Shown here in pieces: positions 7,351-27,261 of a stretch of 53,552 nt of DNA. The DNA comes from Spirochaetota bacterium (GTDB taxonomy: Bacteria > Spirochaetota > UBA4802 > JAGODF01). The DNA lies in the NCBI GenBank assembly GCA_017998375.1, contig JAGODF010000001.1:1-53552 (forward strand), given 5' to 3'. A model generated the notes under the pieces. The model saw only the letters and a program-made list of their open reading frames with translations. It was not told the DNA's origin and ran no database searches. A program made the translations under genes and the position numbers. Numbering within the stretch: position 1 is the first letter of the stretch; each line of letters begins with the position of its first letter.

Positions 7351-7353
7351 TAA

Positions 7354-7399
7354 TGCGCGTCCAAGAGGATTCGAACCTCTGACCCACGGATTCGTAGTC
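7354..7399 (-). repeat. int-distal att repeat = displaced 3' half of tRNA-Arg(ACG)
   Basis: 46 nt match 27216-27261 at 44/46 positions; mismatches at 7364 and 7380. Confidence 0.9.
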
Positions 7400-8658: not shown

Positions 8659-8706
8659 TGTATTGTAATAAATTCATGGCGTTCCTGTAAAGCAACACGA
8701 GCAGAA

Positions 8707-9108: not shown

Positions 9109-9156
9109 AATACTTATTATGAGAATCAATAGCTGAGGAAAAGAGTATAAAAAGAA

Positions 9157-11895: not shown

Positions 11896-11959
11896 CTGAA
11901 TGATGTATAATGAGTTTCTGTTTATATTATTTTATTCTCCAACGTCCTGACATTTCTAA

Positions 11960-12790
11960 ATGTTTAGAATTACTATTATACCAATGCCTGTTGAGGAGGA
12001 TTGGATTTTTCTTGCTGGCAGCATTGGAATAATTATAATATTCGAGGTAATAAATTTGTTAAATGCTATGTATAACATTCTCTTCAAGGAATTGTACTAC
12101 TCTTATTGCAATATTATCAAAGATTCCCGATACAGCAAAAAGAAATATTGCCTCATGTATCCTTGTGTCGGAGAATATTATAGGAAATCCAAATTTTTAT
12201 TTGTGGGGCGTGCTGTAAATGGTTGGAATACTCAATTTGTGTGTAATAGAAAAAACTATTCTATTGTAATAAAAAGTATAAAAGCCTCAATGAAAGAAAA
12301 AACAAGATGGATCGAGGACAATGAAAAAGGATTAAATGAGTATTACAATGGTAATAGAAGTAGATTCTTGAAATGTTGTTCTCGGGTATTACATGAAGTC
12401 ACTCAAAAAAATATTATGATGGATTCTCATTGGTCAAAACACATTGCATGGTCAAATCTCATGAAAATCGCCCCTTCAAAAGGCGGCAATCCGACTGACC
12501 GAGAGTGTTATGCTCAACTGGACATTTGCCGCGATCTTTTCAAACTCGAACTTGACCTTCTAAAACCTCGATTTGCATTTATTTTCACTGGTTTGAACTG
12601 GTTCGATAACGGTGACTTTACATTCGTATCGCCATTGGGGATTAAGTTGAAATTCGTCAAAGATAAAGTCGTAAAAGCGATCGGAACTTATAAAAGAACA
12701 CAGCTGATTATTACGGAAAGACCCGATAATCGGAGGGAGGGGTTTACGAATGACATGTTTGTGAAGAGTTTTAAAAAATACATAGTTTAA
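11960..12790 (+). CDS. Divergent uracil-DNA-glycosylase-superfamily (family 4/5-like) protein
   Basis: SNLMKIAPSKGGNPTDRECYAQLDICRDLFKLELDLLKPRFAFIFTGL parallels the UDG-family pattern N.VKCRPP.NR.P...E...C...L..E+.L+.P+++..LG. Motif A is replaced by FVGRAVNGW and motif B by ITERPDNR. The start is uncertain (ATGs at 11960, 11984 and 12068). Confidence 0.45.
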   Translation: MFRITIIPMPVEEDWIFLAGSIGIIIIFEVINLLNAMYNILFKELYYSYCNIIKDSRYSKKKYCLMYPCVGEYYRKSKFLFVGRAVNGWNTQFVCNRKNYSIVIKSIKASMKEKTRWIEDNEKGLNEYYNGNRSRFLKCCSRVLHEVTQKNIMMDSHWSKHIAWSNLMKIAPSKGGNPTDRECYAQLDICRDLFKLELDLLKPRFAFIFTGLNWFDNGDFTFVSPLGIKLKFVKDKVVKAIGTYKRTQLIITERPDNRREGFTNDMFVKSFKKYIV

Positions 12791-12902
12791 TATATAAAAA
12801 CATCGAAAGAAACCTTATGGGTAAGATATTAGCATAGCGTTACAAATATTATTCCGATATGAATAGTAGCTTAATGGAGCGTATTTGTGCTTTGTTTTAA
12901 TG

Positions 12903-12953
12903 TTGACGTGGAATAAAGACGTGGTATTTATCAAATTCTTGAAATCTTTCAAG
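12903..12953 (+). promoter_or_regulatory. Candidate promoter/operator of the PanA-toxin operon
   Basis: TTGACG (12903-12908)-N16-TATTTA (12925-12930). Direct GACGTGG repeats at 12905 and 12918. Perfect palindrome CTTGAAATCTTTCAAG at 12938-12953. Confidence 0.3.
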
Positions 12954-13012
12954 TATTTGATTACTTTCCTATTGGGTACAAAAAGATTTTAATACGGTTG
13001 ATATAATAAAAC

Positions 13013-13561
13013 ATGAACACCATTAACCTTCATACCCTTTTGCTAAATATATTAAAATCTGTTAAAGAATACAGAGATGGTATTCTCATCACACGACTTA
13101 TAAAAATGGCATACCTTGTTGAGGTACTCTACTATCGTAAATTTCATCAAAGATTGACAGACGCCCAATGGGTCTATTATAAGTACGGTCCATATATAAT
13201 GGATATTGATACCCACCTTAGTGATAGAAATATCATAGCAGAAGAAATCGAAGATAAAGAACTCACAAAGTTCATGGTAAAGGATTATGCTGAAATTGAT
13301 GAGGTGCCAGCCGAAGTTCAGACAATCATCTCATCAATTATAAGGAAATACCATGATGTTGAGCTGAGTGACTTATTGGATTATGTATATTATGAAACAG
13401 AACCAATGATGAATGCAGATCAAAGAGGAGAGGTTCTTGATTTCTTAAAAATATTACCAAGCGAATATTATAAAGTAAAAAAACTTGAGTGTTCTGATGA
13501 TGTCATCAAAGATATTAAACTAAAGTATAAAGAAAAAATAAAAAATGCCAAGCACTTATAA
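13013..13561 (+). CDS. Panacea-domain (SocA-like, DUF4065) putative antitoxin
   Basis: ITRLIKMAYLVEVLYYRKFHQRLTDAQWVYYKYGPYIMDI fits the Panacea signature (KL.KL.Y......G.P.....+.A...GP). It overlaps the downstream gene by 17 nt. Confidence 0.6.
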   Translation: MNTINLHTLLLNILKSVKEYRDGILITRLIKMAYLVEVLYYRKFHQRLTDAQWVYYKYGPYIMDIDTHLSDRNIIAEEIEDKELTKFMVKDYAEIDEVPAEVQTIISSIIRKYHDVELSDLLDYVYYETEPMMNADQRGEVLDFLKILPSEYYKVKKLECSDDVIKDIKLKYKEKIKNAKHL

Positions 13562-14333
13562 GGGTATCCCCGATTTATACGATACGGTTTGTGGGGAATT
13601 CGATTCGAGCTTCTACGATTGGATATTACCACCGGAATCAAGTACATTGCAGGTGGGTCAGTTGTGTAATGCCCCGGTATGGTATGAGAGAAAAAAACGC
13701 TGGTATCTTACAGAAGAACATTATTATCCCACAAGGGAGGAGGAATCCACCTGGAGAGCAAATATATATTCGGGAAAAAGTAAAGTAGAAAGAGAACCTC
13801 AGCATATTGTTGCAAAATATTTTGAACTGGAAAAAGGTGAAAATCTTTTTGCTTCTCCCGGAAAGTACCGACCTGTAATCCTTATAAGAAAATATCAAAA
13901 TGATTGGCTTAACCCAGCTAATACATCTGAGCATATAGCTACTTGGTTATGCCTTCCATTGTTTTCATATAAAGACAGACACAACCAACCATTTGTACTG
14001 AATGACATGGCTTTTAAAAGCCCTGAAAGAGTATATATCCCTCCAAGTTATAAAGATAAACCCGGTGGTATCATTGAAAGTTCAGCGCAATTTCTTTCAA
14101 TCCAAATGATTAAGGAAGAATACTTAGAGCCTTTGACGTCAATGAGTGGAATTCGACCGCCTAAAATGCAAAGACCATTTAGAGTGAGCAATTTCGCTCT
14201 TAAAATCATCATGTTCCATTTCCTCAAACATTTCAATCTGTTTGATGTTTTATTGGACAGTTGTGATACTGATGGGAAAACTGCTTATACTTTATTTGTG
14301 GAAGAAGTAAATGAGATTCTTTCAAAGTGCTGA
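13545..14333 (+). CDS. Putative toxin partner of PanA; long, insertion-bearing PemK/MazF-like protein
   Basis: Ordered MazF-like elements: VGQLCNAPVW, then GKYRPVILIRKY, then WLCLPLFSYK, then ESSAQFLSIQMIKEEYLEP. There is an insert of about 55 aa and a helical C-terminal extension. Translationally coupled to PanA. Confidence 0.35.
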   Translation: MPSTYKGIPDLYDTVCGEFDSSFYDWILPPESSTLQVGQLCNAPVWYERKKRWYLTEEHYYPTREEESTWRANIYSGKSKVEREPQHIVAKYFELEKGENLFASPGKYRPVILIRKYQNDWLNPANTSEHIATWLCLPLFSYKDRHNQPFVLNDMAFKSPERVYIPPSYKDKPGGIIESSAQFLSIQMIKEEYLEPLTSMSGIRPPKMQRPFRVSNFALKIIMFHFLKHFNLFDVLLDSCDTDGKTAYTLFVEEVNEILSKC

Positions 14334-14351
14334 AAACTCTGGAGTTGATTA

Positions 14352-14546
14352 ATGACAAAAATTGTATGTGAAGGGTGTGGAGCTGTTTATGAGATTGAAG
14401 AACATCACATTATAATGCGCGATAAAGATTCGATTGAATGTCACCATTGTAACACTACTTTAATTTCATGGAATGGTGGTCATTGGTATACGGATAAAGA
14501 AATTTCTGGACCAACTAAAAACTTCATAAAAAAGGAAAACCTTTAA
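14352..14546 (+). CDS. Small zinc-ribbon protein
   Basis: CEGC...CHHC pairs; GGAG RBS; starts 18 nt after the putative toxin gene. Confidence 0.5.
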   Translation: MTKIVCEGCGAVYEIEEHHIIMRDKDSIECHHCNTTLISWNGGHWYTDKEISGPTKNFIKKENL

Positions 14547-14914
14547 ACTTATTATTGATTTTCTTCTATTTGATTCCTTAAATCTATTAATACGCTGTCG
14601 TCACCAACGGCGATGAATGGCCTAACCGGCACTGTACGACCAAAACTATCAATCATTATGTTTGCAATCAAAAAGATTAGGGCGAATAATTTAATATTTT
14701 TGCTCAGGTCGATAATTATTCCATGAAACTCCTCGAATGCCACCAATGCCAGCACAGAGTAACCCTCACCGACCAGGGGGGGTATTTGTGATTATTATGA
14801 TGATAAGCGTCACCGACTGGCATTTGAAACGGTTGACAAGACTAGGGAAGTGATTCCATGCCCGAGGGAGGAGATGATTGTCAGGCAATAATATTATTAT
14901 ATGGTTAGATTCTC

Positions 14915-15157
14915 TTACTTTTCGATATCAAGAAGATTGCGAGGATGAAGATTCAAGGAATTTGCAATTTTAACTAATGTTTTCATCGTGAAATTGACTT
15001 CACCATATTCTATTCGTTGAAAATATTTGTAATCTACACCATTGACTTCAGCCAACTTTTCCTGGGTTAAACCTGCCTTTTCCCTTTCAGCTTTAATTAT
15101 TCGTCCTACCTGGAGCAGAAAATCAGAAGCATTATATTGATTCCCTCTTTGTTTCAT
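14915..15157 (-). CDS. XRE-family helix-turn-helix regulator
   Basis: AGLTQEKLAEVNGVDYKYFQRIEYGEVNFTMKTLVKIANSL. The canonical ATG is at 15157; the track ORF starts at a TTG at 15163. Confidence 0.8.
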   Translation of the reverse strand: MKQRGNQYNASDFLLQVGRIIKAEREKAGLTQEKLAEVNGVDYKYFQRIEYGEVNFTMKTLVKIANSLNLHPRNLLDIEK

Positions 15158-15189
15158 TAGCAAATACTATCAAAATGTAATTGCATTAA

Positions 15190-15211
15190 ACACCGTACTA
15201 TAATACGGTGT
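15190..15211. promoter_or_regulatory. 22-bp palindromic operator candidate centred on a TATAAT box
   Basis: ACACCGTA-CTATAA-TACGGTGT lies in the divergent region between the XRE gene and the 15253 gene. Confidence 0.45.
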
Positions 15212-15252
15212 AGCGAATTATTGATATTCTTGAAATTAGATTAGGTGTTGGT

Positions 15253-16707
15253 ATGAAAACTGATATCGAAGAATGTCTAAAAATATTGCCAAGACTATTA
15301 GACTTCGCCAATTTGCCAGATGCGTATATCTCTATGATACTTAATGAGATTAGTCAGGCTTATAACGATAATTTAACAGATATAAAATTAACAAGCAATC
15401 TATACTGGCTATTCCATACTCCCAAAGAAGGTGATAGAGTTGTCAAAGGTAAGAAGGGAGGTGGTATTTATGGAACAGTATTTAAAGATGATGATGGACA
15501 ACTAAGTATAAATCTTGATGAGCCGTTAAAAACATCGAAGGAAAAAATATTTAAATTAAGGGGAGGGTACAATAAGATTGTTGAGGATGCTCTACTATTA
15601 AACTGGAATTATATTTCTTCAAATTCCTTACAGTATATTTATAATAACATGAAGCTGGCTGAATATGAAGAATTATCAAGAAGTAAACCGGTATATTTCG
15701 TTTATCATGGTAACTCGCCATGTAAATGGTGCAAAAAACACAAAGGCACTATTGTACGTTTGCTCCCTCGTGAGATTATTGAAAATGATATTGATGAACT
15801 TTCACATTATGGAATAGATGATATTCATGCAAAAACGGTAATCTGGTTTAATAAAAATAATATTAACCATTCTAAATTAAGAGTATGTGCCTTCCCACAT
15901 ACCGAGGAAGAGCATACATGCGGTATTGATCTCTTACCAATCAATCTTGAAGCTATTGAAGAAGTTCATGAAAAAAAGAAAGGGAACTTCGATTTTTCAA
16001 CAAAGATACGAAACCTTCTTAAAAAGAAAAGATTTAAGTTTGGATCAGGTGAACCGATGACACCTGAACAGTGGGAAATATTCGATAAAAGCATAGATGC
16101 ACGATGGAAGAAAGAGGTTGAAAGGATCACCGGTGTTACTGCAACGAAGGGAGACAGACCTCAATTTGAAACAAGGAAAAAGCCTTATCGAAATAATAAT
16201 ACAAAAGAATGGTATAACCCAGAAACAGGGCAGGTAGAAAAAACACAAATAAAACGAAAGTTCATTCCTCAAGAAATTGATTATTCATATCAGAGTAAGG
16301 AAGAAAAAGAATATCGAAAACCGACATTTATTGAAAGCGACAAGGTGAGATACAATAATAATATTTACGAGCGTGTTGCACCAGGAGATTACGAAAAGAG
16401 AAAAGCGGTATGGGATCGGGATCGAACATTACCGATTCCAGTTTCAACAGACAGCACCAGGTATGAAAAAATATTTGGTGCGACGAAAAATAAAAAAAAG
16501 GAGAAAGACAATCGGAAGCCAACGTTTATAGGAGAAAATCTTGTTAGATTCAATAATAATATTTATGAAGCTGTTCCCGCAAGTGAATATAATCGGAAGT
16601 TGGAAGAATGGAGAAAAGACCCAACAAAACCAGCTCCAGTAAATGAATCCGGGCCTGGGTATAAAAGAATTTTCGAAGAGGCAGGTAAAAATAGGAACAA
16701 GGAGTAA
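15253..16707 (+). CDS. Hypothetical protein, possibly phage MuF/SPP1-gp7-like head-morphogenesis domain plus C-terminal tandem repeats
   Basis: SPCKWCKKHKGTIV and FPHTEEEHTCG loosely resemble the MuF pattern D.R.C..C..L.G ... PP.HPNCRC. Two copies of a unit of about 66 aa: RKPTFIESDKVRYNNNIYERV... and RKPTFIGENLVRFNNNIYEAV... Confidence 0.3.
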   Translation: MKTDIEECLKILPRLLDFANLPDAYISMILNEISQAYNDNLTDIKLTSNLYWLFHTPKEGDRVVKGKKGGGIYGTVFKDDDGQLSINLDEPLKTSKEKIFKLRGGYNKIVEDALLLNWNYISSNSLQYIYNNMKLAEYEELSRSKPVYFVYHGNSPCKWCKKHKGTIVRLLPREIIENDIDELSHYGIDDIHAKTVIWFNKNNINHSKLRVCAFPHTEEEHTCGIDLLPINLEAIEEVHEKKKGNFDFSTKIRNLLKKKRFKFGSGEPMTPEQWEIFDKSIDARWKKEVERITGVTATKGDRPQFETRKKPYRNNNTKEWYNPETGQVEKTQIKRKFIPQEIDYSYQSKEEKEYRKPTFIESDKVRYNNNIYERVAPGDYEKRKAVWDRDRTLPIPVSTDSTRYEKIFGATKNKKKEKDNRKPTFIGENLVRFNNNIYEAVPASEYNRKLEEWRKDPTKPAPVNESGPGYKRIFEEAGKNRNKE

Positions 16708-16743
16708 TACATGGTAATTAAAAATTCAGTCATGGAGTAGATT

Positions 16744-17286
16744 ATGAAAAAATATTTAATTGTAATTTCGCTAATATTTTCAATTTCTTTATCCGTAAAT
16801 GTGCATTCAGCGGGAGTGCCAGATATAGGGTACAGAGAATTCAAATTAGGAATGCAAAGAATTGTCGCCGAAAAAATTGTTAGGGACAAATACCTCAATG
16901 AATACGCAGTAAATTTCAATGCTGTTGCTAAAAAAGATAAAAACATAATTGAAATTAAAGATAAGAACATTCAAAATAAATATATATTTTTGTATTTCAA
17001 CGAAAAAAATAATTTATATGACATAATTGTTTGGGCCGCTTACATGGATAATATAAAATATACTGTTTTAGTAAATCAGTTAGTTGATAAATATAAAACA
17101 CCATATTCAAAAAGATTAGACACAGGTGGGTATTATCATCTTGGATGGGTGTGGGATAATAAAAAGTATATAATCCAATGCTTCTATGAAGCAGACATCG
17201 AAACAGTTTTCATAACCTATTCGAATAATTATTTGAAAGAAAAATATCACAAGTATCTTTATGGAGATGGATTAGAGGATTTTTAA
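16744..17286 (+). CDS. Secreted hypothetical protein
   Basis: Signal peptide MKKYLIVISLIFSISLSVNVHSA; no recognisable domain. Confidence 0.5.
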   Translation: MKKYLIVISLIFSISLSVNVHSAGVPDIGYREFKLGMQRIVAEKIVRDKYLNEYAVNFNAVAKKDKNIIEIKDKNIQNKYIFLYFNEKNNLYDIIVWAAYMDNIKYTVLVNQLVDKYKTPYSKRLDTGGYYHLGWVWDNKKYIIQCFYEADIETVFITYSNNYLKEKYHKYLYGDGLEDF

Positions 17287-17365
17287 TTTTCAATATCAAT
17301 TCATCGTCTGTTTATTAGTGTAGAAATGGTTAATGCCAGTTTATTGAAATAATGTAGAATAACTA

Positions 17366-17965
17366 TTATGGAATTCGTTGTTCATCTTCATCTAATAGCT
17401 CCTGTGGATCACGGGCCGGAACAACCGTGATTGTTTCAGTATGCCCTACATCTTCCTGGACCATCCCGAGGATTTTAACGAGCAATGCCAGGGCCGCGAT
17501 CTTGTCATACATTACAACAGAAAAAGATTCTGAGCCGCTAACACTGGTTTTGTGCCTCAAGGATTTAACAGCCCTGGTATCAACTTCTGATAGATTGTGA
17601 AGGTTTATATTGCCGTTTGAGAAATTAATAATATCAAAAATATCGCTAAAAGCAATGGCTTGAATTTCAGCCAGAGTTCGACCGCATAATGCTTCACGCG
17701 AGGCCCAGAGTGTATCGAGGCGCTCTTGGATGGCTCCGGAAATGTTGCTTTTTGTTAACAGTCGTGCTGCGGCGGCTCTTGCAGCATTTGCTTTTGCCAA
17801 TGGGTATGCAGCTCTGTAGCTTGCCGATCCGTTCATCGTTCTTATATATTCTAAAACGAAAACACGCTGTCGGTCGTTTAATGAATCCCATGCGGATATT
17901 TCAACCTGATGCCCTGGTTTTGTTTTCTTCCTTGATGCCTTAATGATTTCAGTATTATCGTTCAT
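17366..17965 (-). CDS. terS: Phage terminase small subunit (Terminase_2 / P27-like)
   Basis: LNDRQRVFVLEYIRTMNGSASYRAAYPLAKANAARAAAARLLTKSNISGAI fits the pattern LT.KQ..F..EY....N...A...AGYS.......A..LL....V...I. Confidence 0.65.
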   Translation of the reverse strand: MNDNTEIIKASRKKTKPGHQVEISAWDSLNDRQRVFVLEYIRTMNGSASYRAAYPLAKANAARAAAARLLTKSNISGAIQERLDTLWASREALCGRTLAEIQAIAFSDIFDIINFSNGNINLHNLSEVDTRAVKSLRHKTSVSGSESFSVVMYDKIAALALLVKILGMVQEDVGHTETITVVPARDPQELLDEDEQRIP

Positions 17966-18179
17966 TTTTCTTTTTACTCTTTCGTTTGGCTTGGCATTCC
18001 GGACAGTATGGCCAGCAGCGATAAATTACCCAACCGCCGCGATCAGGCGAAATAAAATCGCTATAGTATATCCAGTTAAAGCAATTTCTACACCAGACCC
18101 ATGGACGGGATTGATCATCTGGTATTTTAAATTTCAACTTGTACCTTCCTTGCCCGCACCACTCAATAAATATGGGCAA
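17955..18179 (-). CDS. Small Cys-rich (zinc-ribbon-like) protein
   Basis: CRNC...CPEC; TTG start only; overlaps terS by 11 nt. Confidence 0.35.
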   Translation of the reverse strand: MPIFIEWCGQGRYKLKFKIPDDQSRPWVWCRNCFNWIYYSDFISPDRGGWVIYRCWPYCPECQAKRKSKKKNER

Positions 18180-18189
18180 ATGCTATATA

Positions 18190-18465
18190 TTAAGCCTGCT
18201 GCATTTCCCAATCGAGATAAAAGCATGATCGTAATATATCTTCAGTCACTTCACGCCAATATGATGCTTTTTGAGCAATCATCTCTTCTTTGGTTAATCC
18301 AGGTGAACAATCCCCCTTTGCCTTTTCCCATTCATCATCATGATTAGCATTAATTATCTCATTGACACCTTCATCCAAATATTTTTTTATTTTAGATTCT
18401 TGTTCTATTTTATACTTTTCCAATTTGAGGTTTTTCGAAAATTCACTTGTTTGTTGATTACTCAT
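18190..18465 (-). CDS. Hypothetical protein
   Basis: Strong RBS AAGGAGATAAAA before the ATG at 18465; 91 aa, charged. Confidence 0.5.
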   Translation of the reverse strand: MSNQQTSEFSKNLKLEKYKIEQESKIKKYLDEGVNEIINANHDDEWEKAKGDCSPGLTKEEMIAQKASYWREVTEDILRSCFYLDWEMQQA

Positions 18466-18551
18466 TTTTATCTCCTTGAATTATAATGTAATTCCATTCC
18501 ATGCATTAGTACTGCCAAAAAAGACATGTAGAACAATCTATATTTGCACTT

Positions 18552-18660
18552 GAAACTGCAAACAGCGCAAACACAACAAACGAAAACAATATAAATTAAA
18601 GTAAAGTGTTTGCGTTATTGGTATTGTTTGTGTTGTTTGCATCGTTTGTGTTGTTGGTGT
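18552..18660. other. Candidate replication origin: inverted arrays of 9-bp-phased CAAAC/GTTTG iterons flanking an AT-rich core
   Basis: CAAAC at 18559, 18568 and 18577. GTTTG at 18608, 18626, 18635 and 18644, with degenerate copies at 18617 and 18653. AT-rich spacer 18586-18607. The region straddles the stop codon of the primase-helicase gene. Confidence 0.45.
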
Positions 18661-20503
18661 TTTTTGTAGATACCGCCTGATATTCTCCTCGTGATGATCT
18701 GATAATTTGACCGGCTTCGCACATTTTCATTAGCAAGAATCTGGTTGTACTTTGATTTTTGTTAAGAACTTGTGCGATGTCCTTCGGTTTCATCGACCCA
18801 TTTGCGGCCCGTAGTGTGTCGATTATTTCTTGACGTGCTTTACTGTCAGCAATCTCTGTTGCGTCTCCCACTATCTCCCAGCGGCATGTTGGAGTGTCAA
18901 ACCTGACAGCAAGTTCGCGCTCCTCAATATCGCGTCCCGTTATCGATAGCACAGCGTCACCTTGTCCTCGCTTGCGTGCCAATATTAAAACAGTATCGGC
19001 TACACCTGTTATTCCAATTGATCCCACAGCGGCATGAATGAAATCTGTAACTTCTGCTTTCTTAGCATGGTGAACAACAATTATTGCAATTCCATATTCA
19101 TCCGCGAATGCCTTTATCGGAGTAAGTGCTGCTGTCGTTTGCGAGTAGTCATTATTGTCTTTGACAGTGGTAAAGCGTGCAAGGGTATCGATAATTATAA
19201 CTGTGGTGTCAGGGTGTTCATCCATCCACTTGTGTAGCCAGATAAATCCTTTTCCGTCTGGAGCCCAATTTGTCATGATGTGGCAATTATCGGATGGAAC
19301 CGCAGACTGTTTTTTTAATCTATTTTTAATACGTCGTGGCGTGTCCTCAAGGAATAGAGAAAGGGTGCGTCCCAATGGTATCGGAATACTACCTAAGATG
19401 GTTCCCCCCATGGACATGGTAATGGCTATATCGAGACCAAACCATGATTTACCAATTTTTGGCGTACCCGCTAGGACTGTGAGTCCTTGGGGTATGATGC
19501 CAGGTATGATGTAAATGGGTTCTGGGAAATCTGTAGTGATGAGTTCTGCTGCAGTCCAAACCTTAAAGTTGGGTTCAGTATTTTTGGTTTTCATTCTTGG
19601 GCATGTCTTTATATATTCCACCAAGTCTAATCCTTCAGACTGTGCATCTGCGATATCCCATCCCTTTGGCTTTCCGGTGATTTGGAGGACCTCTGCGTGA
19701 GGAAGTTTTGCTTTAATGTCCTCGGCTGCTTGAAACCCCGCCAGATCGTTGTCCGGCCATATAATGGTCTTGTGTCCTCGTAATGGTTTCCAGTCAGTTT
19801 TATTAACTGCCTGAGAACCCCCAATCCATGTCACGGTAATATATCCCGGTACTTGGACCTCAGCGCACTTCTCTCCCTCAACGATGATGATTGGAAGGGT
19901 GCTCACAGTAAATTTGTCGATATTATATAACGGTCTATTGTTTTTTTTAGGATTGCCTGCAGTCCATTTGCCAGCCGTAGTGAAGTAATATGGAACAATA
20001 TTTTTTTTCCCATCTTTTTCGTGGCGAATAACTACTACCCATGATCTTTTATTGAAACGATAGTTCCAAACGGCGATGGCTTTGCCGAATTTTTCGACAA
20101 TGAATTTATTTGTTAGATGGATTTCAAGGTCATTTAATCTTTCATCGGGATTATACTCGGCTGGTATATGAAGAGTAGAATTATTTTGTTTCACGGGTGT
20201 TGAGTGAAATGTATCTGATGTAAGATGGCCAGCTGCCTCAACGATGATATTGGCTGCCTCGATCTTTGAAATTCCCTGGAATTTTTCAAGCAGGGTGATC
20301 ATATCGCCTTGGTCGTTGGAGGAAAAATCATTGTACAATCCAGATTCTGATATGCTAAACGAACCTGGATTTTTATCGTTGCGAAGAGGATTCTGAATCC
20401 AATATTCTCCGTGCTTCCATTCCCCACCAGGGAAAAGTCGTGAAATAATAGAGGGTGATATGGACTGGCGAGCCTGATCGAAGATGTCAGGATGAGTATT
20501 CAT
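18596..20503 (-). CDS. Bifunctional primase-helicase (Toprim domain + RecA-like/AAA_25 ATPase + C-terminal wHTH)
   Basis: Toprim IIIVEGEKCAE...IWPDNDLAGFQAAE. Walker A LAGTPKIGKS; Walker B VIIIDTLARF. ATG at 20503 after AAAGGGG. N/T-rich low-complexity tail. Confidence 0.75.
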   Translation of the reverse strand: MNTHPDIFDQARQSISPSIISRLFPGGEWKHGEYWIQNPLRNDKNPGSFSISESGLYNDFSSNDQGDMITLLEKFQGISKIEAANIIVEAAGHLTSDTFHSTPVKQNNSTLHIPAEYNPDERLNDLEIHLTNKFIVEKFGKAIAVWNYRFNKRSWVVVIRHEKDGKKNIVPYYFTTAGKWTAGNPKKNNRPLYNIDKFTVSTLPIIIVEGEKCAEVQVPGYITVTWIGGSQAVNKTDWKPLRGHKTIIWPDNDLAGFQAAEDIKAKLPHAEVLQITGKPKGWDIADAQSEGLDLVEYIKTCPRMKTKNTEPNFKVWTAAELITTDFPEPIYIIPGIIPQGLTVLAGTPKIGKSWFGLDIAITMSMGGTILGSIPIPLGRTLSLFLEDTPRRIKNRLKKQSAVPSDNCHIMTNWAPDGKGFIWLHKWMDEHPDTTVIIIDTLARFTTVKDNNDYSQTTAALTPIKAFADEYGIAIIVVHHAKKAEVTDFIHAAVGSIGITGVADTVLILARKRGQGDAVLSITGRDIEERELAVRFDTPTCRWEIVGDATEIADSKARQEIIDTLRAANGSMKPKDIAQVLNKNQSTTRFLLMKMCEAGQIIRSSRGEYQAVSTKNTNNTNDANNTNNTNNANTLL

Positions 20504-20545
20504 ACACACACCCCTTTTGCGACATCAATATAAGGTTTGATGAGT

Positions 20546-20728
20546 TCATTTCTTACCTCCGCAGTCCGAAGGTAAAAAGCTAATTTCGCGGGTTATAGTG
20601 TATCGAGCAAAACGGCCCCCGTGTCGAATTATCTCTAATTTTATTGAACCATGGGAAACTCCTGCGATTTCTTTTTCAAACTGGGATATTATTTCTTGAG
20701 GAATAAAATTTTTTTTGGTGGGTTCCAT
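20546..20728 (-). CDS. Small protein, YezD/DUF2292-like
   Basis: GVSHGSIKLEIIRHGGRFARYTITRE resembles the YGSV.L.+.+G+V pattern. The ATG overlaps the upstream stop (TAATG). Confidence 0.35.
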   Translation of the reverse strand: MEPTKKNFIPQEIISQFEKEIAGVSHGSIKLEIIRHGGRFARYTITREISFLPSDCGGKK

Positions 20729-20949
20729 TATTTTCCCTCCACAGCAATTGAATGCTCTTGCAAAAATGAATTTATTTCATCAAGATCATACCTGACCGAT
20801 CTCCCAATTTTATAATGAGGAATTTTTTTTTGTGATGTCCACAGCCTGACAGTTTGATTGGAGATGTTCAGATAATTGGCGAGTTGTTTCCCGTTAATTT
20901 TTTTTTGAAGCCAGAAACAATCACGAGGGTTTTCTTCTGGGGTTTTCAT
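20728..20949 (-). CDS. AlpA/excisionase-family HTH protein
   Basis: LANYLNISNQTVRLWTSQKKIPHYKIGRSVRYDLDEINSFL (HTH_17-type). ATG at 20949 after AGGAAGG. Confidence 0.7.
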   Translation of the reverse strand: MKTPEENPRDCFWLQKKINGKQLANYLNISNQTVRLWTSQKKIPHYKIGRSVRYDLDEINSFLQEHSIAVEGK

Positions 20950-21403
20950 AGCCGACACCTTCCTGCATTTTATCAGAAAATGTGCGCGGGCTATTTGGTG
21001 CCGAATTGCGCGAAGCTCACTGAAAAATGAAATATCGTGAACTTTATATAAACACCTTAATAGATAGCTGATCTTTTGTCAACAATTAAATATTCCATTA
21101 AACATAGTCATAACAAGATAAATTTTGAATATATGTATATCAGGCGATTTTAAAATGAGGCAAGTAATCGGACAAAAGAGTTAGTTATGTCATGTATGAG
21201 CTAATGATAATAGAAAAAGCAATAATATATTAAACAAGTCGGAATTCCCTATTCTAGGAAGAACTTTTTGCAAACATGATTATTTTGAGAGAAAACAATT
21301 ACAGTGAGAGGGTTACATTTAAATAATTGAAAACTTAGAATACTTGACAAAAATAATAAAATTGTAAAATATGTATTAATCAAAACAACATCAATAATTT
21401 AGC

Positions 21404-21856
21404 ATGTTGATAAAAAAAGCAAAAGCGAATCTTGACATCGCGCGATATTGTGCAGGTTGTTCAGATGTTAGCTATTATTCAGTTGGTGCGTCAAGAGCTT
21501 ATTACTCAATTTTTCAATCAGCAAAGTCGATATTGCAAAATGGATCATTCGATTATTTTTCTTTTCTGAACACAATACCAAAGAGAAAGGAATATGATCA
21601 TGATAATCATAAGCCTTATTCTCATGGTACAATATCTTCTGCTTTATGCACTTATATTTCCAAACGTCCCAAATATATCGAAGAAACTCATAAATATTTA
21701 CAATTTCAAATAAATGCGACTTTTAGCGCACTTTATAGTTTGCGAGTTCAAGCCGATTATGAGGGTAAGGACATCGAAATAAGTATTCTTAACGACGCTA
21801 TAAAGAAAGCCGAAAAACTAATATCTGATCTAAAATTATTTATTGGATTTAATTAG
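21404..21856 (+). CDS. HEPN-domain-like protein (putative toxin of a TAC-like operon)
   Basis: AKANLDIARYC...SRAYYSIFQSAKSIL, YSHGTISSAL and LYSLRVQADYEGKD match the classical HEPN helix pattern (A..dL..A...YyA.f.a.kAlL...sH.g...lR..adY). Confidence 0.5.
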   Translation: MLIKKAKANLDIARYCAGCSDVSYYSVGASRAYYSIFQSAKSILQNGSFDYFSFLNTIPKRKEYDHDNHKPYSHGTISSALCTYISKRPKYIEETHKYLQFQINATFSALYSLRVQADYEGKDIEISILNDAIKKAEKLISDLKLFIGFN

Positions 21857-22349
21857 CATGGATTACGAAATAGCAAATATAATTAGAGACCATATTTATG
21901 AGTATAAATACAGATTCGGATTTTTACCTGTAAAACTATCTATAATAAATAATGAGATATTTGTTCTTATAAATTCACTCGAAGTATTAGATAATAATGA
22001 ATACCAAGAGATGATTTATAATTTTAATACTGAATATTTCAAGAGAGGTTATGTTAATATTTATTGGGGTATAGATGATTTCATTGATGACGATTTTAGT
22101 CAATTGTATGAATATAGTAATTTCATCATTCCTATGATCAAAACATCATCAGCAAATATTTTAAATGAATTTGATCTAACAAAGAATCTTGATAATTATT
22201 TAAATATATTTGATAATTGCCAAAACGATATCGAAACTACGGGAAAAATAACAACGTATTTGGATTATAATAAAGATAAGCAACCAATAAAAGAGAATGT
22301 AATAAAAAACAAATTTGTTCCTAATGTAAATTTTACACTAGCGGCATAA
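21843..22349 (+). CDS. Acidic hypothetical protein (putative antitoxin of a TAC-like operon)
   Basis: Overlaps the HEPN gene by 14 nt (an alternative ATG at 21858 starts 2 nt after the HEPN stop, leaving a 1-nt gap). D/E/N-rich; no MNT GS..D.D motif; ends 2 nt before the SecB-like gene. Confidence 0.45.
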   Translation: MDLISMDYEIANIIRDHIYEYKYRFGFLPVKLSIINNEIFVLINSLEVLDNNEYQEMIYNFNTEYFKRGYVNIYWGIDDFIDDDFSQLYEYSNFIIPMIKTSSANILNEFDLTKNLDNYLNIFDNCQNDIETTGKITTYLDYNKDKQPIKENVIKNKFVPNVNFTLAA

Positions 22350-22351
22350 AT

Positions 22352-22825
22352 ATGAATAACCAGATACTTTTAAATTTTGAAAAAATTTACTATCCTGAAA
22401 TTCGTCTTTCGTATAATCCGAAGTATAAAAATAATTATGATATGTTTACAGATGTAAGGGAAATTGAGTGTAAAATATCTATTGCTGGGAATGTTAATAT
22501 TATTAACGATAATAAATTGATTTGTATTGTAAACTGCAATGTTATGTGTAACCATAAGGACTTTGCAGATTTTTCGAGATTAAATATTATTTCACATGGG
22601 ATATTTGCTACCCCAGATAAATTTTCCATTGAAACAGTTCAAGAGTATCATCAGAATTTTTATGCTATAGTATACCCATTTATTCGAGAGACGGCTCATA
22701 GTGTATTTATGAAAAATAGAATAAGCTTTATTATGCCAATAATAAACTTTCTTCAAACAATTAAAGACAATCCTTCTAATTTTAAAATTATGCAAACAAA
22801 TAACAATGGAGATGATAAAGCCTAA
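22352..22825 (+). CDS. SecB-like chaperone
   Basis: LNFEKIYYPEIRLSYNP aligns with E. coli SecB FQIQRIYTKDISFEAPN. SHGIFAT...FYAIVYPFIRETAHSVFMKNRISFIMPIINF aligns with GGIFSI...[32 protein letters not shown]. Confidence 0.7.
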   Translation: MNNQILLNFEKIYYPEIRLSYNPKYKNNYDMFTDVREIECKISIAGNVNIINDNKLICIVNCNVMCNHKDFADFSRLNIISHGIFATPDKFSIETVQEYHQNFYAIVYPFIRETAHSVFMKNRISFIMPIINFLQTIKDNPSNFKIMQTNNNGDDKA

Positions 22826-22871
22826 TTTCGTTGATAAAGCTAAAACTGAGAAAATTTGACTTGGAATCAAC

Positions 22872-23456
22872 TTAAGTAAACATAATTGTTTGTCGTCCCC
22901 TGTGTCTTGGTTTGTAATCACTTTCTAAAGGATTATCCGAGGCTAATGCATTCCCAAGTGATTTGAAGTCGTTAGCCTTTAGGCCAACTTTGTTGTCTGT
23001 TTCTAGAAGCGTAAACAGGTCTTGATGGTTCCCAAGAAGGTATGAAAAGAAATCCGATATCTTTTTGAACCAAGCTTTGAACTCGTTATTGAAATCCCAG
23101 TCTTTGATCGAAATGAGGCGCTTCTTGGTAATATGACTGACACGTTGATGTAACCGATCAAGAAATGCATTGTCAGCAGATGAGAGTTCGATTGAATTGT
23201 AATTATAGTCCGAAGAATTAATATCTCTATTATCTGTCCTAGTTAAGAGCAGTATCAAATTTCGCGTGTGCGTACAAAGCCCCTCAAGCAATCCGCCACG
23301 AACTGCCAGGTCAATGGCCGGTTCGGAAATCCAACCGAGTTCACCATTCATTTTTCTAGTCCAGAAAACATGAAGTGCCTTTGCCATGAGAAGCGCCATC
23401 TCGGCTTCGTAATGGATATGCTTTAAACCTTGTATCTTCTCATCGAGGTTTAACAT
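22872..23456 (-). CDS. Hypothetical protein
   Basis: ATG start, 194 aa, predicted helical; no domain recognised by eye. Confidence 0.45.
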   Translation of the reverse strand: MLNLDEKIQGLKHIHYEAEMALLMAKALHVFWTRKMNGELGWISEPAIDLAVRGGLLEGLCTHTRNLILLLTRTDNRDINSSDYNYNSIELSSADNAFLDRLHQRVSHITKKRLISIKDWDFNNEFKAWFKKISDFFSYLLGNHQDLFTLLETDNKVGLKANDFKSLGNALASDNPLESDYKPRHRGRQTIMFT

Positions 23457-23489
23457 TAAAATAAACCCTCCCTCATTGATGTTATAAAG

Positions 23490-24224
23490 TTAATTCTCAT
23501 TTCTTATAAGACATTTCAGTGTTTTAATTATCTCGGATTTCGGAACATTATCGCCGGATTCTAATTTTCTTAACAATTCACCAGGCGATAAAACATTGTT
23601 ATTATCTTGAATGAGTTGCTTTTCAGAAGGGGTAAAAGATACAATTTTGCAAAATACTTCTAATTCTGGCCCAAATCCCAATTGCCTATTAAAACTATAT
23701 GTTGCCTCTGGCCCAAAATATGCGACTTTTGTGATTATAATTTTACCAGAGAAAAGCTTTGATTCTTCAAATTTTTCAATGATGGCTGATGATGTTGCAT
23801 TATGTTGAGTATTGATTTCAGCTTGGCTGAATATTTTAAAAAAAATTCGATTTTTCTTATAGTTTTCTGTGTGGGTAATGGGTGACTCATAACAGTTAAG
23901 CCTGAAATAACGATTTTCTCCACCAAGCGTTTCACGTTTGAAAGTATCTCTCACAAACAAACACGAATCCGTGGAGGAAATTTGTTTGCCATTAACAAAT
24001 ATTGAATCTAAAATATGCCTTATTTCTTGATCTGCTTTTTTTGCCTTAATTGACAAGCCTTTCTCTTGATATTCATTCGCATCTTTTGCTAAATAAAATA
24101 CCTTATTCAATTTATCAAAATCGATTACTTGCTTATTTTCCGCGAAAGTAATTGAATTAAAAGATAGAAATGCAAAACTACATAATCCAATAATTAGTAT
24201 TTTCATTTTTAGCCTCTTTGTCAT
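23490..24224 (-). CDS. Secreted hypothetical protein
   Basis: Signal peptide MKILIIGLCSFAFLSFNSITFA; no recognisable domain. Confidence 0.5.
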   Translation of the reverse strand: MTKRLKMKILIIGLCSFAFLSFNSITFAENKQVIDFDKLNKVFYLAKDANEYQEKGLSIKAKKADQEIRHILDSIFVNGKQISSTDSCLFVRDTFKRETLGGENRYFRLNCYESPITHTENYKKNRIFFKIFSQAEINTQHNATSSAIIEKFEESKLFSGKIIITKVAYFGPEATYSFNRQLGFGPELEVFCKIVSFTPSEKQLIQDNNNVLSPGELLRKLESGDNVPKSEIIKTLKCLIRNEN

Positions 24225-24289
24225 GTTAAATAATCGACAGTTAATATTATGCTAACTGTTGTAAAAAATATCAAGGTATAATATTCAGA

Positions 24290-25144
24290 TTATGCTTTAT
24301 TCATCCTTTCGCATAGTTTATCCAAAGTCTGAAACTCGTCTTTTGAAAGTTTAACAGTGCCAGAGTAATAACCATTTACGCATTTTGCCAGTTTCTTCAA
24401 AACATGATTCAATGCCCTGCGGATAAACCTTGCTTCAATATCAGAAAATTCAGTGATATATAATCGTGATGTTTCCTTTTTCACAGTTTTATTCCTGAGT
24501 TCGTTCCGCGTAATATTCTTTTCCGCTCTTTGTTTTATCAGACTCTTTTTTATGGTTTTATCTTTAATTGCCCTTATCTCAGAAAAATCCTGTAAAGTCA
24601 CGCCGCGTGACTTTTTTAGAATCTCCATATTATCCGGATCACTTTCAATTTCTTTAATCCCCGAAAACAAGTTCTTGATATACCCTTCAGCCTTTCCAAG
24701 GATTCCGGCAATCTGTTTAATCGTCAATCCTTCTTGCCGTAATTTCTTTAATGCATGATACAGTTCAATAGGCTTTAAATCAACCCTCTGGACGTTTTCT
24801 ATCAATTGCCTGATGATGATATTTTTATCGTCGGTGATTATCGCTTGAATAGAGTGATACTGGTCTTTATTTTCCTTGTAAAGCTCGCGATATGCACGTA
24901 ATCGTCTGTGTCCGATAATACAAAGATAATCTTCTCCATCTTTACACACGGTAATCGGTTGAATCAGACCGACTGTTTTTATACTTTCCTTCAAATCGTC
25001 AATATCACAAGTATCATGCTCCCTGAGATTCTGCCTGGCTGATATTTGACCGATAGGGATTGTCTTAATGGTAACGGTTCCAGTATCCCGAGTCCCTGTT
25101 CTTTCAGTTACTTGTTTCAGTAGTTCTAATTTTGCCATGTTCAT
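24290..25144 (-). CDS. parB: ParB-family partition protein
   Basis: ParB N-terminal domain: LKESIKTVGLIQPITV...IIGHRRLRAY. Overlaps parA by 4 nt. Confidence 0.8.
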   Translation of the reverse strand: MNMAKLELLKQVTERTGTRDTGTVTIKTIPIGQISARQNLREHDTCDIDDLKESIKTVGLIQPITVCKDGEDYLCIIGHRRLRAYRELYKENKDQYHSIQAIITDDKNIIIRQLIENVQRVDLKPIELYHALKKLRQEGLTIKQIAGILGKAEGYIKNLFSGIKEIESDPDNMEILKKSRGVTLQDFSEIRAIKDKTIKKSLIKQRAEKNITRNELRNKTVKKETSRLYITEFSDIEARFIRRALNHVLKKLAKCVNGYYSGTVKLSKDEFQTLDKLCERMNKA

Positions 25145-25914
25145 ATCCCCTTTCCGTTCAAGTTAACTGCTAGGGTTTCTGCCATGTAATTCTTAATTTC
25201 AGCGTATTGTCGTACTGTTTCTTGCCGGTCGTTTATCCGGTAGCCGTCATCATTGATATACTTTTTAATGGCTGATGATCGAGTTAATTGAGCGGTGATA
25301 AATGGTGATATTCCAGCGTCATGCCTGAAAAGATTTACAACCTGATTGGTGAATGTGCTCAGGTTTTCTGTCCTTGGTTTGTCGTACTGGTTGAACACAA
25401 CATTTATTTCAAGGTTGGCAAGATCAAGGTCGGCAAGTTTTTCAAACAGGAATTTAAGAGCCTGAAAATTGAATACATCGGGGATTACTGGAATAATTAA
25501 TGTATCACTTGCATATAAAACATTGATAATGATGTTATCATAGGAAGGTGCTGTGTCGATTATCACATAATCATATTCAGTCAATTCATGTATCTGTCTT
25601 TTCAGCCGCTTATAATTATCAATGCTTCGAAAGTCCGAAAGCCTGACATCCGCGTGAACAAGGTCAAGGAGGTCATGTATCAGAATAGTGTTTTCAAGAA
25701 TACCATTACCAGCAAATACTTTAAAAATGTTTTTATCATGAATTGTTTCAAAGGGTATCCCGGAGTTGTAGTAAAACGAAAGGGAATGGTTTGCTGTATC
25801 CGTGTCAATGGCAAGGCATTTGTAACCGGCACTGATTAGACTGTTCAAGGTAATTATTGACAGAGTGCTTTTACCGGTGCCGCCCTTTGTGGTGTGGAAG
25901 GATATAGTTTTCAT
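25141..25914 (-). CDS. parA: ParA/Soj-family partition ATPase
   Basis: Deviant Walker A TTKGGTGKST; Walker B YVIIDTAP. Confidence 0.85.
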   Translation of the reverse strand: MKTISFHTTKGGTGKSTLSIITLNSLISAGYKCLAIDTDTANHSLSFYYNSGIPFETIHDKNIFKVFAGNGILENTILIHDLLDLVHADVRLSDFRSIDNYKRLKRQIHELTEYDYVIIDTAPSYDNIIINVLYASDTLIIPVIPDVFNFQALKFLFEKLADLDLANLEINVVFNQYDKPRTENLSTFTNQVVNLFRHDAGISPFITAQLTRSSAIKKYINDDGYRINDRQETVRQYAEIKNYMAETLAVNLNGKGI

Positions 25915-25915
25915 A

Positions 25916-27112
25916 CTATTGCACCTCCTGCCCGATTAAGCCCGTAAACAAGCTGTCCTGGACATTTCTAACATCCATCATATCGTCGATGTGGTAGTAA
26001 TGGGAGGTCATCTGTGCCGTCATATGACCCGTTATGCTTTGAATTTTTTGAATTGGAATCTTGCTATTGATTAAAAGGCTATTCAGGAAGTGACGCCAAC
26101 TGTGGAAAGTGATGTTACGACGCTTGCGTTCGGCTTTATCTATCCCTATTTTTTCAAGTGCTGTAAAAAGCGCCCGGACAAAAACCACTTTTTCCGCTGG
26201 TTTTTCGACTGGTTTTTTCTCTCCAAGGAATAAAAAAGCTTCTGGATTGTTTTTTAGAGGATGTTCGGCTAATAGTTTATTTGTCGCATTGATAACCTGT
26301 TCCGGTATAAAAATTGTGCGTTCCCTGCCTGTTTTGGTGGTTTCATTTAATTTGCTTAATCGGCTGTCCCAGGATCGTTTCACCATGATATAACCCTCGG
26401 ATAGATGTAAATCCTGTATCTTAAGACCCTGAAGTTCTGACAGTCGAAGCCCCGTTGATGCCGCGAGAAGGTTTCCGACATATCCGGTAAATACCGGTTT
26501 TGGCGGGTGACAGTGTATTGGTCTCGATAACCATTGAAAAGAAAAAAGGCGATTTACCTCTTCAAGAGTCAATATGCCCTTTTCTTTTTGTCGTTTTGCC
26601 ACTGGCGCAATTTTGGGCACTCCTTTAATCAGACCATCCTCTTCGGCCATTTCCAGCACAGCCTTGATTGCATAAAGGGCCTTATTGATTAACGAGCTGC
26701 TTTTCCCCTTATTGAATAAACTATTCCGAAAGTTCTTTAAAAGAGGTCTGTCAATATCAGTGATTTTAGTTGAGCCAAAATATGGTAGTACATGATGCCT
26801 TACAAGGTCAGCCGTATCAAGGCAATGCCGCTCTGATAATCTTTTTCCAGCAGCCCTTTTGTCCAATGCCCATCGGCCGTTCCAGTCAAAAAAATGATCG
26901 GCGTATCTTTCGAAGATTATTTCACGGCCGGGCATAGGTGCGCCGTGATTTTGCAGGTAATCGTAAGCCCAGGAATCCGCCGCTCGCCGTGACGTGCATC
27001 CGGTGCTTTTGGCTGTAGTATATTTTCCGTCTGGTTGCTTGAATTGAACGTAGTATACGGCTTTACCGTCTTTACGCTTTCGGGGGTATAATGAAAAACC
27101 GGCCATTCTCAT
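25916..27112 (-). CDS. int: Tyrosine recombinase / integrase
   Basis: Catalytic C-terminus: LRLSEL..., HSWRHFLNS, GHMTAQMTSHYYH. Strong RBS GAGGAGA. Immediately downstream of the tRNA-Arg 3' end. Confidence 0.9.
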   Translation of the reverse strand: MRMAGFSLYPRKRKDGKAVYYVQFKQPDGKYTTAKSTGCTSRRAADSWAYDYLQNHGAPMPGREIIFERYADHFFDWNGRWALDKRAAGKRLSERHCLDTADLVRHHVLPYFGSTKITDIDRPLLKNFRNSLFNKGKSSSLINKALYAIKAVLEMAEEDGLIKGVPKIAPVAKRQKEKGILTLEEVNRLFSFQWLSRPIHCHPPKPVFTGYVGNLLAASTGLRLSELQGLKIQDLHLSEGYIMVKRSWDSRLSKLNETTKTGRERTIFIPEQVINATNKLLAEHPLKNNPEAFLFLGEKKPVEKPAEKVVFVRALFTALEKIGIDKAERKRRNITFHSWRHFLNSLLINSKIPIQKIQSITGHMTAQMTSHYYHIDDMMDVRNVQDSLFTGLIGQEVQ

Positions 27113-27215
27113 TCTCCTCGCAAGATAACGTCATCTGACATTTATCTCACTTTTTAAGATAATGAGAAACGCCGGTTTTCCGGTAGTCTCTGATGCCTGA
27201 ACTATTCAGGACTTA

Positions 27216-27261
27216 TGCGCGTCCAGGAGGATTCGAACCTCCGACCCACGGATTCGTAGTC
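27216..27261 (-). repeat. int-proximal att repeat (element-derived 3' half now completing tRNA-Arg)
   Basis: Matches 7354-7399 at 44/46 positions. Confidence 0.9.

Follow-up and report, generated by a model that had tools for sequence, protein, structure and literature searches.

The question raised by this locus is whether three closely packed genes carried by a mobile element in a spirochaete genome make up a toxin-antitoxin-chaperone (TAC) module and, if they do, of what kind. The genes lie in a stretch of 53,552 nucleotides, referred to here as the window, that is contig JAGODF010000001.1 (positions 1 to 53,552, forward strand) of the Spirochaetota metagenome-assembled genome (MAG) GCA_017998375.1. 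Among phage-defence modules the TAC systems form an emerging class, whose SecB-like chaperone also acts as the sensor, and the warheads described for them so far are the HigB, MqsR and HicA RNases and the ADP-ribosyltransferase CmdT; the initial annotation of the window had named the three RNase families and left out CmdT. We assign a probability of roughly 0.7 to the reading in which the three genes are a TAC module composed of a HEPN toxin, a chaperone-addicted antitoxin and a SecB-like chaperone, where toxicity, neutralisation, dependence on the chaperone and the trigger are inferred from sequences, structural models and analogy. The role of such a module would probably be phage defence or element addiction. 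The genes are as follows:

21404..21856, plus strand: gene 1, putative toxin, 150 aa, basic (pI 9.0), with a HEPN domain of the AF0298/HEPN-T type

21858..22349, plus strand: gene 2, putative antitoxin, 163 aa from ATG, acidic (pI 4.4)

21843..22349, plus strand: gene 2 from an alternative TTG start, 168 aa

22352..22825, plus strand: gene 3, SecB-like (SecB-TA / CmdC-like) chaperone, 157 aa

The coordinates and spacing given in the initial annotation for these three plus-strand open reading frames (ORFs) were reproduced. Genes 1 and 2 overlap by 14 nt if gene 2 begins at TTG or are separated by 1 nt if it begins at ATG, and gene 3 follows gene 2 after a gap of 2 nt. The length of 168 aa originally reported for gene 2 is that of the TTG version. 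Homologs of gene 2 start MDRDL..., MKREE... and MNRKL..., in register with the ATG of the window (MDYEI...), and because they begin at this position the version with the 1-nt gap and a protein of 163 aa is preferred.

Relatives of the three genes are few and distant. Single-sequence queries of a word-indexed collection of 5.8 billion proteins with genes 1 and 3 retrieved only the queries themselves, tblastn of the same two genes against GenBank phages gave no match, scans of viral contigs for the motif and family of gene 1 found nothing and a fold search of the viral collection BFVD returned nothing significant. HMMER, run exhaustively with gene 3 through 1.84 billion representatives, found five distant homologs only. 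A degenerate DNA pattern, written by hand to fit the chaperone motif, was then used to seek additional loci and picked out 16, mostly by chance, among which L019 and L009 are real. In each of these two the triad is complete and ordered as in the window; the homologs of genes 1, 2 and 3 in L019 have E-values of 1e-16, 5e-14 and 1e-18. Genes 1 and 2 are linked in 6/6 loci, and gene 2, which the initial annotation had taken for an orphan, has homologs in five loci besides the window. The chaperone gene follows in all three loci that have a complete middle gene and a contig continuing beyond it, and in the partial loci (L001, L023, L025 and L026) the contig stops before the third gene or starts after the first. 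Since the arrangement is conserved in two other complete loci whose triad proteins are only 27-40% identical to those of the window, it is more than chance, and the idea that the genes are chance ORFs was rejected on this conserved synteny. The module is real, conserved and mobile. In one partial locus (L025, positions 1582-1890) the homolog of gene 2 diverges abruptly past residue ~70 and runs into a stop at codon 103; in this copy the antitoxin gene may have been disrupted or have recombined.

Gene 3 had been aligned by eye to E. coli SecB throughout its length. As a pairwise statement this did not hold: BLASTP with the E. coli SecB sequence (identical to 5jtl_A) yields 22.7 bits in a match confined to residues 9-61, and gene 3 matches neither Pfam SecB (PF02556) at E<=1 nor any PDB entry in a single-sequence search. 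At the level of profiles it did hold, with the PF.RE...P.NF region included. A profile of the gene 3 family matches the SecB structures 1fx3 (E 4.8e-6) and 1qyn (E 2.6e-5) over ~126/145 positions, through the region FP[FY].RE...P.NF, which in gene 3 itself appears as the signature YAIxFPFxRE...P.xN at residues 104-132. When the Pfam-positive homologs P0007 and P0006 are left out of the profile, SecB is still the sole PDB match (E 2.8e-3). P0007 scores 41 bits against Pfam SecB (cut-off 26) and three other homologs match SecB below threshold. The PADLOC model PD-T4-9_C, which represents CmdC, the SecB-like chaperone of the CmdTAC system (PMC9519451), matches gene 3 at E 1.8e-4 and every tested relative at 7.8e-4 to 2e-12. 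The gene for P0007 (locus L005) is preceded by those of a Gp49/HigB toxin and then an HTH/HigA antitoxin, that is, it belongs to a HigB-HigA-SecB operon, and that of P0006 (locus L003) follows the gene of an MqsA-like Zn-ribbon/HTH protein. Judged by these matches, gene 3 is SecB-like and closest to the chaperones of TAC systems, CmdC included, with a likeness that is detectable at the profile level only. It shares a fold-level family, and profile likeness over ~130 residues, with the housekeeping SecB of E. coli and H. influenzae, but unlike those it is placed within a TA-like (toxin-antitoxin-like) operon on a mobile element and is not a solitary chromosomal gene. The interpretation of gene 3 as a housekeeping SecB was rejected on that placement and on its score below the Pfam SecB cut-off.

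The L003 locus (positions 236-1817 of ERZ27254749 k141_65780) is apparently another TAC. A 160-aa ORF without a family match occupies the toxin position and overlaps by 14 nt with the gene of the MqsA-like protein, which has 213 aa, and an HTH_17 gene lies downstream of that for the SecB-like P0006.

The assignment of gene 1 to the HEPN proteins, made initially from its helix pattern, is borne out by both profile and model. Gene 1 scores 24.1 bits against the Pfam HEPN family PF05168 (cut-off 22), in a match limited to the N-terminal helix pair; its homolog in L009 scores 26.7 bits with the whole domain covered, and the PF05168 annotation is precomputed for three members of the gene 1 family. 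An AlphaFold2 (AF2) model of gene 1, built on six family members, has a pLDDT of 87.6 and a pTM of 0.84, and its top Foldseek matches in the PDB (2hsb, 1ufb, 2q00, 1o3u, 3o10 and 1wol, at probabilities of 0.90-1.00) are all HEPN. By name, these matches are AF_0298 (2hsb; E 3.8e-3, TM 0.60/0.70), which is the best of them, TT1696, SsR10, TM0613, the HEPN domain of sacsin and ST0689.

The members of the gene 1 family share just 29-42% identity, and residues A32, Y33, Y34, Q38, K41, H74, L110, R114, A117, D118 and Y119 are invariant among them (6/6). The motif R114-x3-D118-Y119 and H74 are thus kept in 6/6 members. The canonical Rx4-6H motif is not conserved in the family: such a string is missing from 3/6 members and, where present among the six members checked, it is non-conserved, falls in a loop of low pLDDT and is not at the canonical position. 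The string RKEYDH of the window protein (residues 61-66) was considered as a catalytic Rx4H and rejected for the same reasons, being not conserved and in a low-pLDDT loop. The signatures srAYYamF and LR..sDY are common to gene 1, AF0298 (2hsb) and the PDB entries 9xbd/9xbc. In the AF0298 clade, according to Anantharaman et al., the motif has retained its R and lost its H, and a second conserved H upstream could contribute to an alternative active site; catalysis by proteins of this type is a prediction only, and they are normally paired with or fused to MNT nucleotidyltransferases (PMC3710099). Going by sequence signatures and the modelled fold, gene 1 is a member of this AF0298-type clade without the canonical Rx4-6H. 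Neither gene 1 nor its homologs match the PADLOC model PD-T4-9_A for CmdT.

The two recent PDB entries just mentioned, each a "HEPN domain-containing protein", carry srAYYamF and LRnrsDY and differ from one another at the motif Tyr (DY vs DF), which suggests that this residue is under study by someone. Among open-access papers and bioRxiv preprints, the literature covered for this report, no paper on these entries was found and none that joins UPF0332 and HEPN.

Gene 2 is acidic, as first remarked, and consists of a conserved N-terminal domain of ~70-75 aa and a variable C-terminal half. In its homologs the N-terminal ~70 residues are ~40% identical (E 1e-11 to 5e-14), whereas the C-terminal tails are mutually unalignable. 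No Pfam, NCBIfam or PADLOC match was found for gene 2 or for its homologs, none of which belongs to the HigA, MqsA, HicB or CmdA families, and PHROG matches of gene 2 appear only at E>=0.05. The initial annotation had also stated that gene 2 is without an MNT nucleotidyltransferase motif, and we came to the same conclusion: a regular expression for GSX10DXD, the motif that defines MNT antitoxins (PMC7641770), finds it in 0/5 sequences of the gene 2 family, from which GS and GG dipeptides are wholly absent, and gene 2 does not match NTP_transf_2 (PF01909) even at E<=1. A low-confidence model hints, and no more than hints, at an alpha-beta-beta-alpha-beta N-domain followed by ~35 disordered residues at the end of the protein. 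The features of this end are:

22242..22346, plus strand: putative chaperone-addiction (ChAD) tail, gene 2 residues 129-163, predicted to be disordered, with Y134, Y137, F153 and F159

22338..22346, plus strand: Leu-Ala-Ala codons of an ssrA-like ClpX degron, read directly from the sequence

The last 35 residues have pLDDT values <35, which is weak evidence for disorder given the low confidence of the single-sequence model. Aromatic residues are present in 2/3 of the tails of the middle proteins. The tail is variable, probably disordered and a candidate chaperone-addiction element. Its Leu-Ala-Ala end was overlooked in the initial annotation. The three complete middle proteins end TLAA (window), SYAA and ILAA, and in gene 2 only 4/163 residues are Ala, 2 of them being the last two; the MqsA-like protein encoded upstream of P0006 ends GKAA. 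The ssrA/ClpX degron has a C-terminal Ala-Ala at its core. LAA, which is a signal for ClpXP, also terminates CmdA and other TAC antitoxins, and CmdA is turned over in a ClpP-dependent manner from which CmdC protects it (PMC11618068); an AA-to-DD change abolishes CmdTA toxicity (bioRxiv 10.1101/2024.02.24.581848). CmdT by itself was non-toxic. In HigA1 of Mycobacterium tuberculosis (Mtb) the site to which SecB binds and a terminal ClpX degron are both contained in the ChAD (PMC8165232). The degron is not universal in TACs, as the HigA of E. coli NT1F31 has no C-terminal aliphatic ClpX degron.

CmdTAC (PD-T4-9) of E. coli ECOR22 is one of the closest known systems. It is likewise a three-gene operon on a mobile element, in the order toxin, antitoxin, chaperone, and its chaperone CmdC is homologous to gene 3, the PD-T4-9_C models matching gene 3 and all of its relatives. 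CmdA resembles gene 2 in being small, in lacking a classical antitoxin domain and in having a variable tail that ends in LAA (PMC11618068), and the sequence of the CmdTAC antitoxin also varies widely among homologous systems (PMC9519451). The systems differ in the toxin, which is an ADP-ribosyltransferase in CmdTAC and a candidate HEPN protein in the window, where no match to PD-T4-9_A or PD-T4-9_B was found; in the antitoxin, which is a pair of helices in CmdA and, in the low-confidence model of gene 2, has a conserved alpha/beta N-domain of ~75 aa; and in the host, which is E. coli for the one and a spirochaete MAG for the other. The order toxin, antitoxin, SecB-like chaperone is also that of Mtb HigB1-HigA1-SecB(TA) (Rv1955-57), HigBAC, MqsRAC and HicABC, and the likeness to HigB1-HigA1-SecB to which the initial annotation had drawn attention extends to L019 and L009. 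Antitoxins of the HigBAC type are extended at the C-terminus and bear an aliphatic ClpX degron there, as gene 2 does, but gene 1 is not of the RelE/HigB, MqsR or HicA type and gene 2 has no DNA-binding domain of the helix-turn-helix (HTH), Zn-ribbon or ribbon-helix-helix kind like those of the HigBAC, MqsRAC and HicABC antitoxins.

The HEPN proteins of the AF0298 type (HEPN-T; PF05168; 2hsb, 1ufb, 1o3u, 1wol, 9xbd) are the best structural and sequence matches of gene 1, but they are usually stand-alone or MNT-associated, whereas gene 1 is partnered by a new family and a SecB-like chaperone. Surveys of TAC systems list HigA, MqsA, HicB, "MqsA-like" and "HTH-like" antitoxins and HigB, MqsR, HicA or unknown toxins (PMC3581621, PMC5105189), a list that CmdT/CmdA joined in 2022 (PMC9519451), and SecB is not mentioned in the survey of HEPN proteins (PMC3710099). 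In the literature covered, a HEPN protein as a TAC toxin or in a HEPN-SecB pairing was not found, nor, among TAC or HEPN papers, was such a pairing with a non-MNT middle gene, a combination that the initial annotation had supposed to be new; the gene 2 family was likewise not encountered there as part of a TAC.

Of the features by which a TAC might be recognized in sequence, a dedicated SecB-like chaperone in the operon, a compact toxin-antitoxin-chaperone order and a C-terminal aliphatic ClpX degron are each present here, the variable tail of gene 2 is a candidate ChAD extension, and membership in a known antitoxin family is missing. The charge pattern also fits a toxin-antitoxin pair, as the gene 1 homologs have pI values of 8.7-9.0 and gene 2 one of 4.4. 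The data show to which families and folds genes 1 and 3 belong, that gene 2 ends in a degron sequence, that synteny is conserved and that the module is carried by a mobile element, and on this footing a course of events can be envisaged. Gene 1 would be an RNA-targeting toxin with an active site formed by the R114/D118/Y119 motif and the upstream H74 instead of the canonical Rx4-6H, and the conserved N-domain of gene 2 would bind and neutralise it. The tail of gene 2 would serve as a chaperone-addiction element ending in the Leu-Ala-Ala ClpX degron, and gene 3, as a SecB-like tetramer, would bind this tail and protect it both against ClpXP and against aggregation. If the chaperone were titrated away, the degron would be exposed and the antitoxin degraded, and the HEPN toxin so freed would halt translation and growth. 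If CmdTAC and HigBAC are a guide, newly made structural proteins (capsid or tail) of an infecting phage might be what titrates the chaperone.

Several observations weigh against a TAC module of this description. Gene 1 is without the canonical Rx4-6H RNase motif, and because catalysis by AF0298-type proteins is only predicted (PMC3710099), it could be non-catalytic. No DNA-binding domain was detected in gene 2, unlike in the classical TAC antitoxins; the single-sequence AF2 model of the protein is poor (pLDDT 49) and its Foldseek matches are incoherent and uninformative, so that the disorder of the tail depends on a weak model, and the tail in L009 has one aromatic residue only. Gene 3 taken by itself is below Pfam SecB, and its pairwise likeness to E. 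coli SecB is marginal. The family is also very small, at 6 loci found, with three contigs too short to show the third gene; in a fourth, that of L025, a stop breaks up the middle gene and little of the contig is left beyond it.

The surroundings of the triad bear on what such a module might be for. The initial description of an AT-rich mobile element proved apt, and the features concerned are:

7353..27261: integrative element carrying the triad, 19.9 kb, delimited on the basis of a direct repeat, a tRNA gene, the GC profile and gene content

20959..21403: AT-rich intergenic region of 445 bp that separates gene 1 from a divergently oriented AlpA-like HTH_17 gene and presumably contains the promoter of the triad

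GC content is 0.32-0.41 across the island that contains the triad and 0.60-0.65 in the flanks. The direct repeat is 47 nt long and 96% identical between attL (7353-7399) and attR (27215-27261), the latter being the 3' end of a tRNA-Arg(ACG) gene (27217-27291, minus strand) which is adjoined by the gene for a tyrosine integrase (25916-27112). Besides the integrase, the element encodes ParA, ParB, a primase-helicase (AAA_25), the AlpA-like HTH_17 protein and a small terminase (PF03592, E 9e-19); the set of ParA/ParB, small terminase, primase-helicase and HTH_17 genes was noted at 17366-17965, 18596-20509 and 24290-25914, all on the minus strand. No capsid or large-terminase gene was recognised on the 19.9 kb, and the element may be phage-satellite-like or plasmid-like. 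The intergenic region, from which the triad is presumably expressed, contains promoter-like sites at the level of consensus only; the operator search gave no convincing repeat upstream of gene 1 and the search for terminator-like sites found none.

The surroundings of the two other complete triads are as follows. That of L019 is in a phage-like metagenome contig, between an XRE repressor gene and an HTH_17 gene and near a gpA-type large terminase gene. That of L009, in a Marinilabiliales MAG, has these neighbours, which suggest a TA/defence island:

3453-3797 of L009: gene for a PemK/MazF toxin (E 5e-26)

5290-7194 of L009: gene for a 634-aa AAA_15/AAA_21 ATPase

The explanation that best survives beside phage defence retains the same chaperone-addicted TA biochemistry and assigns it to addiction, that is, to stabilisation of the integrative element by post-segregational killing. 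The triad is situated between the replication/regulation genes and parAB of an element that has its own primase-helicase and partition genes, and TAC systems were first described without a phage context (PMC5105189). The TACs of mobile genetic elements that have been studied experimentally (CmdTAC, MqsRAC and HigBAC) nevertheless defend against phage (PMC11618068, PMC9519451, bioRxiv 10.1101/2024.02.24.581848), and the homologous triads occur in a phage-like contig and beside other TA/defence-type genes. Addiction in place of defence is unlikely, if still to be reckoned with, and the two roles are not mutually exclusive.

Decidedly less probable is a gene 1 that is a non-catalytic HEPN subunit for binding or regulation, in a triad that either is no TA system or has gene 2 as its effector. 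Such a subunit would agree with the finding of Rx4-6H at the canonical position in 0/6 members and with the view that some HEPN domains that have lost the motif may be non-catalytic (PMC3710099), and the "antitoxin" of CmdTAC is known to be needed for the folding of its toxin as well (PMC11618068). Against it stand the invariance of H74, R114, D118 and Y119 at 29-42% identity, which fits the alternative site of the AF0298 clade (PMC3710099), and the basic charge expected of an RNA-binding toxin; and gene 2 is the degron-bearing, labile partner, which is the hallmark of an antitoxin.

A very small chance is left for gene 3 being a chaperone that serves the element generally or in morphogenesis, for instance by handling hijacked structural proteins of a phage, and that happens to lie beside an ordinary two-gene HEPN pair. 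The small terminase raises the prospect of a satellite-like element, and chaperones of the SecB type bind unfolded capsid and tail proteins (bioRxiv 10.1101/2024.02.24.581848, PMC11618068). Coincidence is, however, hard to reconcile with a 2-nt spacing and gene order that are conserved in three divergent loci, with the divergence of both the chaperone and the antitoxin tail between loci, with a terminal AA degron that is sensible only if something shields it, or with nearest relatives of gene 3 that are TAC chaperones.

The least probable alternative, a type VII HEPN/MNT system with Y119 of gene 1 as the residue AMPylated by gene 2, itself then a nucleotidyltransferase that has diverged greatly, was rejected for the absence of both defining motifs: HepT/MntA does pair a small HEPN toxin having a conserved Tyr near the motif arginine, as gene 1 has in its invariant Y119 (reminiscent of the AMPylated Tyr in RX4HXY; PMC7641770), and AF0298-type HEPN proteins normally have MNT partners or fusions (PMC3710099), but the RX4HXY regular expression matches 0/6 members of the gene 1 family, gene 2 and its relatives are devoid of GSX10DXD, of GS/GG and, for gene 2 at E<=1, of an NTP_transf_2 match, no nucleotidyltransferase is among the top 50 fold matches of the low-confidence gene 2 model, a chaperone gene is added in the window, and neutralisation there would be by binding instead of the AMPylation used by HepT/MntA.

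To return to the TAC module with a HEPN toxin, a more specific proposal may be made tentatively, at somewhat less than even odds. The triad would represent a new class of TAC in which an AF0298-type HEPN protein (Rx3DY plus upstream His) has exchanged its MNT partner for an antitoxin of a new protein-binding fold that bears a ChAD tail and an LAA degron, the sensing of phage structural proteins falls to a CmdC-like chaperone, and a satellite-like element carries the whole, in spirochaetes and Bacteroidota. A HEPN warhead together with a new antitoxin family would widen the reach of the ChAD/SecB control unit that has been proposed to be plug-and-play, and if the proposal is true this modularity extends to a fifth, unrelated TA family. 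The modularity of TACs has been shown by experiment, through ChAD grafting and a hybrid CmdTA-HigC, and because it is already established a HEPN warhead would not make a category of its own. What the module would chiefly contribute is a functional way into the AF0298-type HEPN proteins, which are abundant and have solved structures but no known function, together with a new antitoxin fold. The module would offer a genetically tractable approach to the question of toxic RNases among them and, if borne out, the first functional handle on their catalytic mechanism and toxicity. As the family appears to be rare (the collections that were searched yielded six loci), the impact would be conceptual and not broad.

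Other genes of the element may be mentioned briefly. The 637-aa primase-helicase has an Asn/Thr-rich, low-complexity C-terminal tail (...NTNNTNDANNTNNTNNANTLL), encoded at 18596-18660 on the minus strand. On the plus strand, a Panacea-domain protein (PF13274, E 3e-10) is encoded at 13013-13561, and its gene shares 17 nt with a 262-aa ORF (13545-14333) for which neither Pfam nor PHROG gives a match; as a candidate, 13013-14333 would be a second TA-like pair on the element, made up of a PanA-type antitoxin and a partner toxin. Also on the plus strand are a 912-aa ORF (9157-11895) with zero Pfam matches and, downstream of it, a 276-aa ORF (11960-12790) with a sub-threshold match to the uracil-DNA-glycosylase superfamily (E 9e-4); the island may have in these two ORFs additional genes for cargo functions or defence. 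Between the triad and parB, at 22872-24224 on the minus strand, there are two ORFs of 194 aa and 244 aa with no significant family match, the longer of which encodes a hydrophobic N-terminus that resembles a signal peptide.

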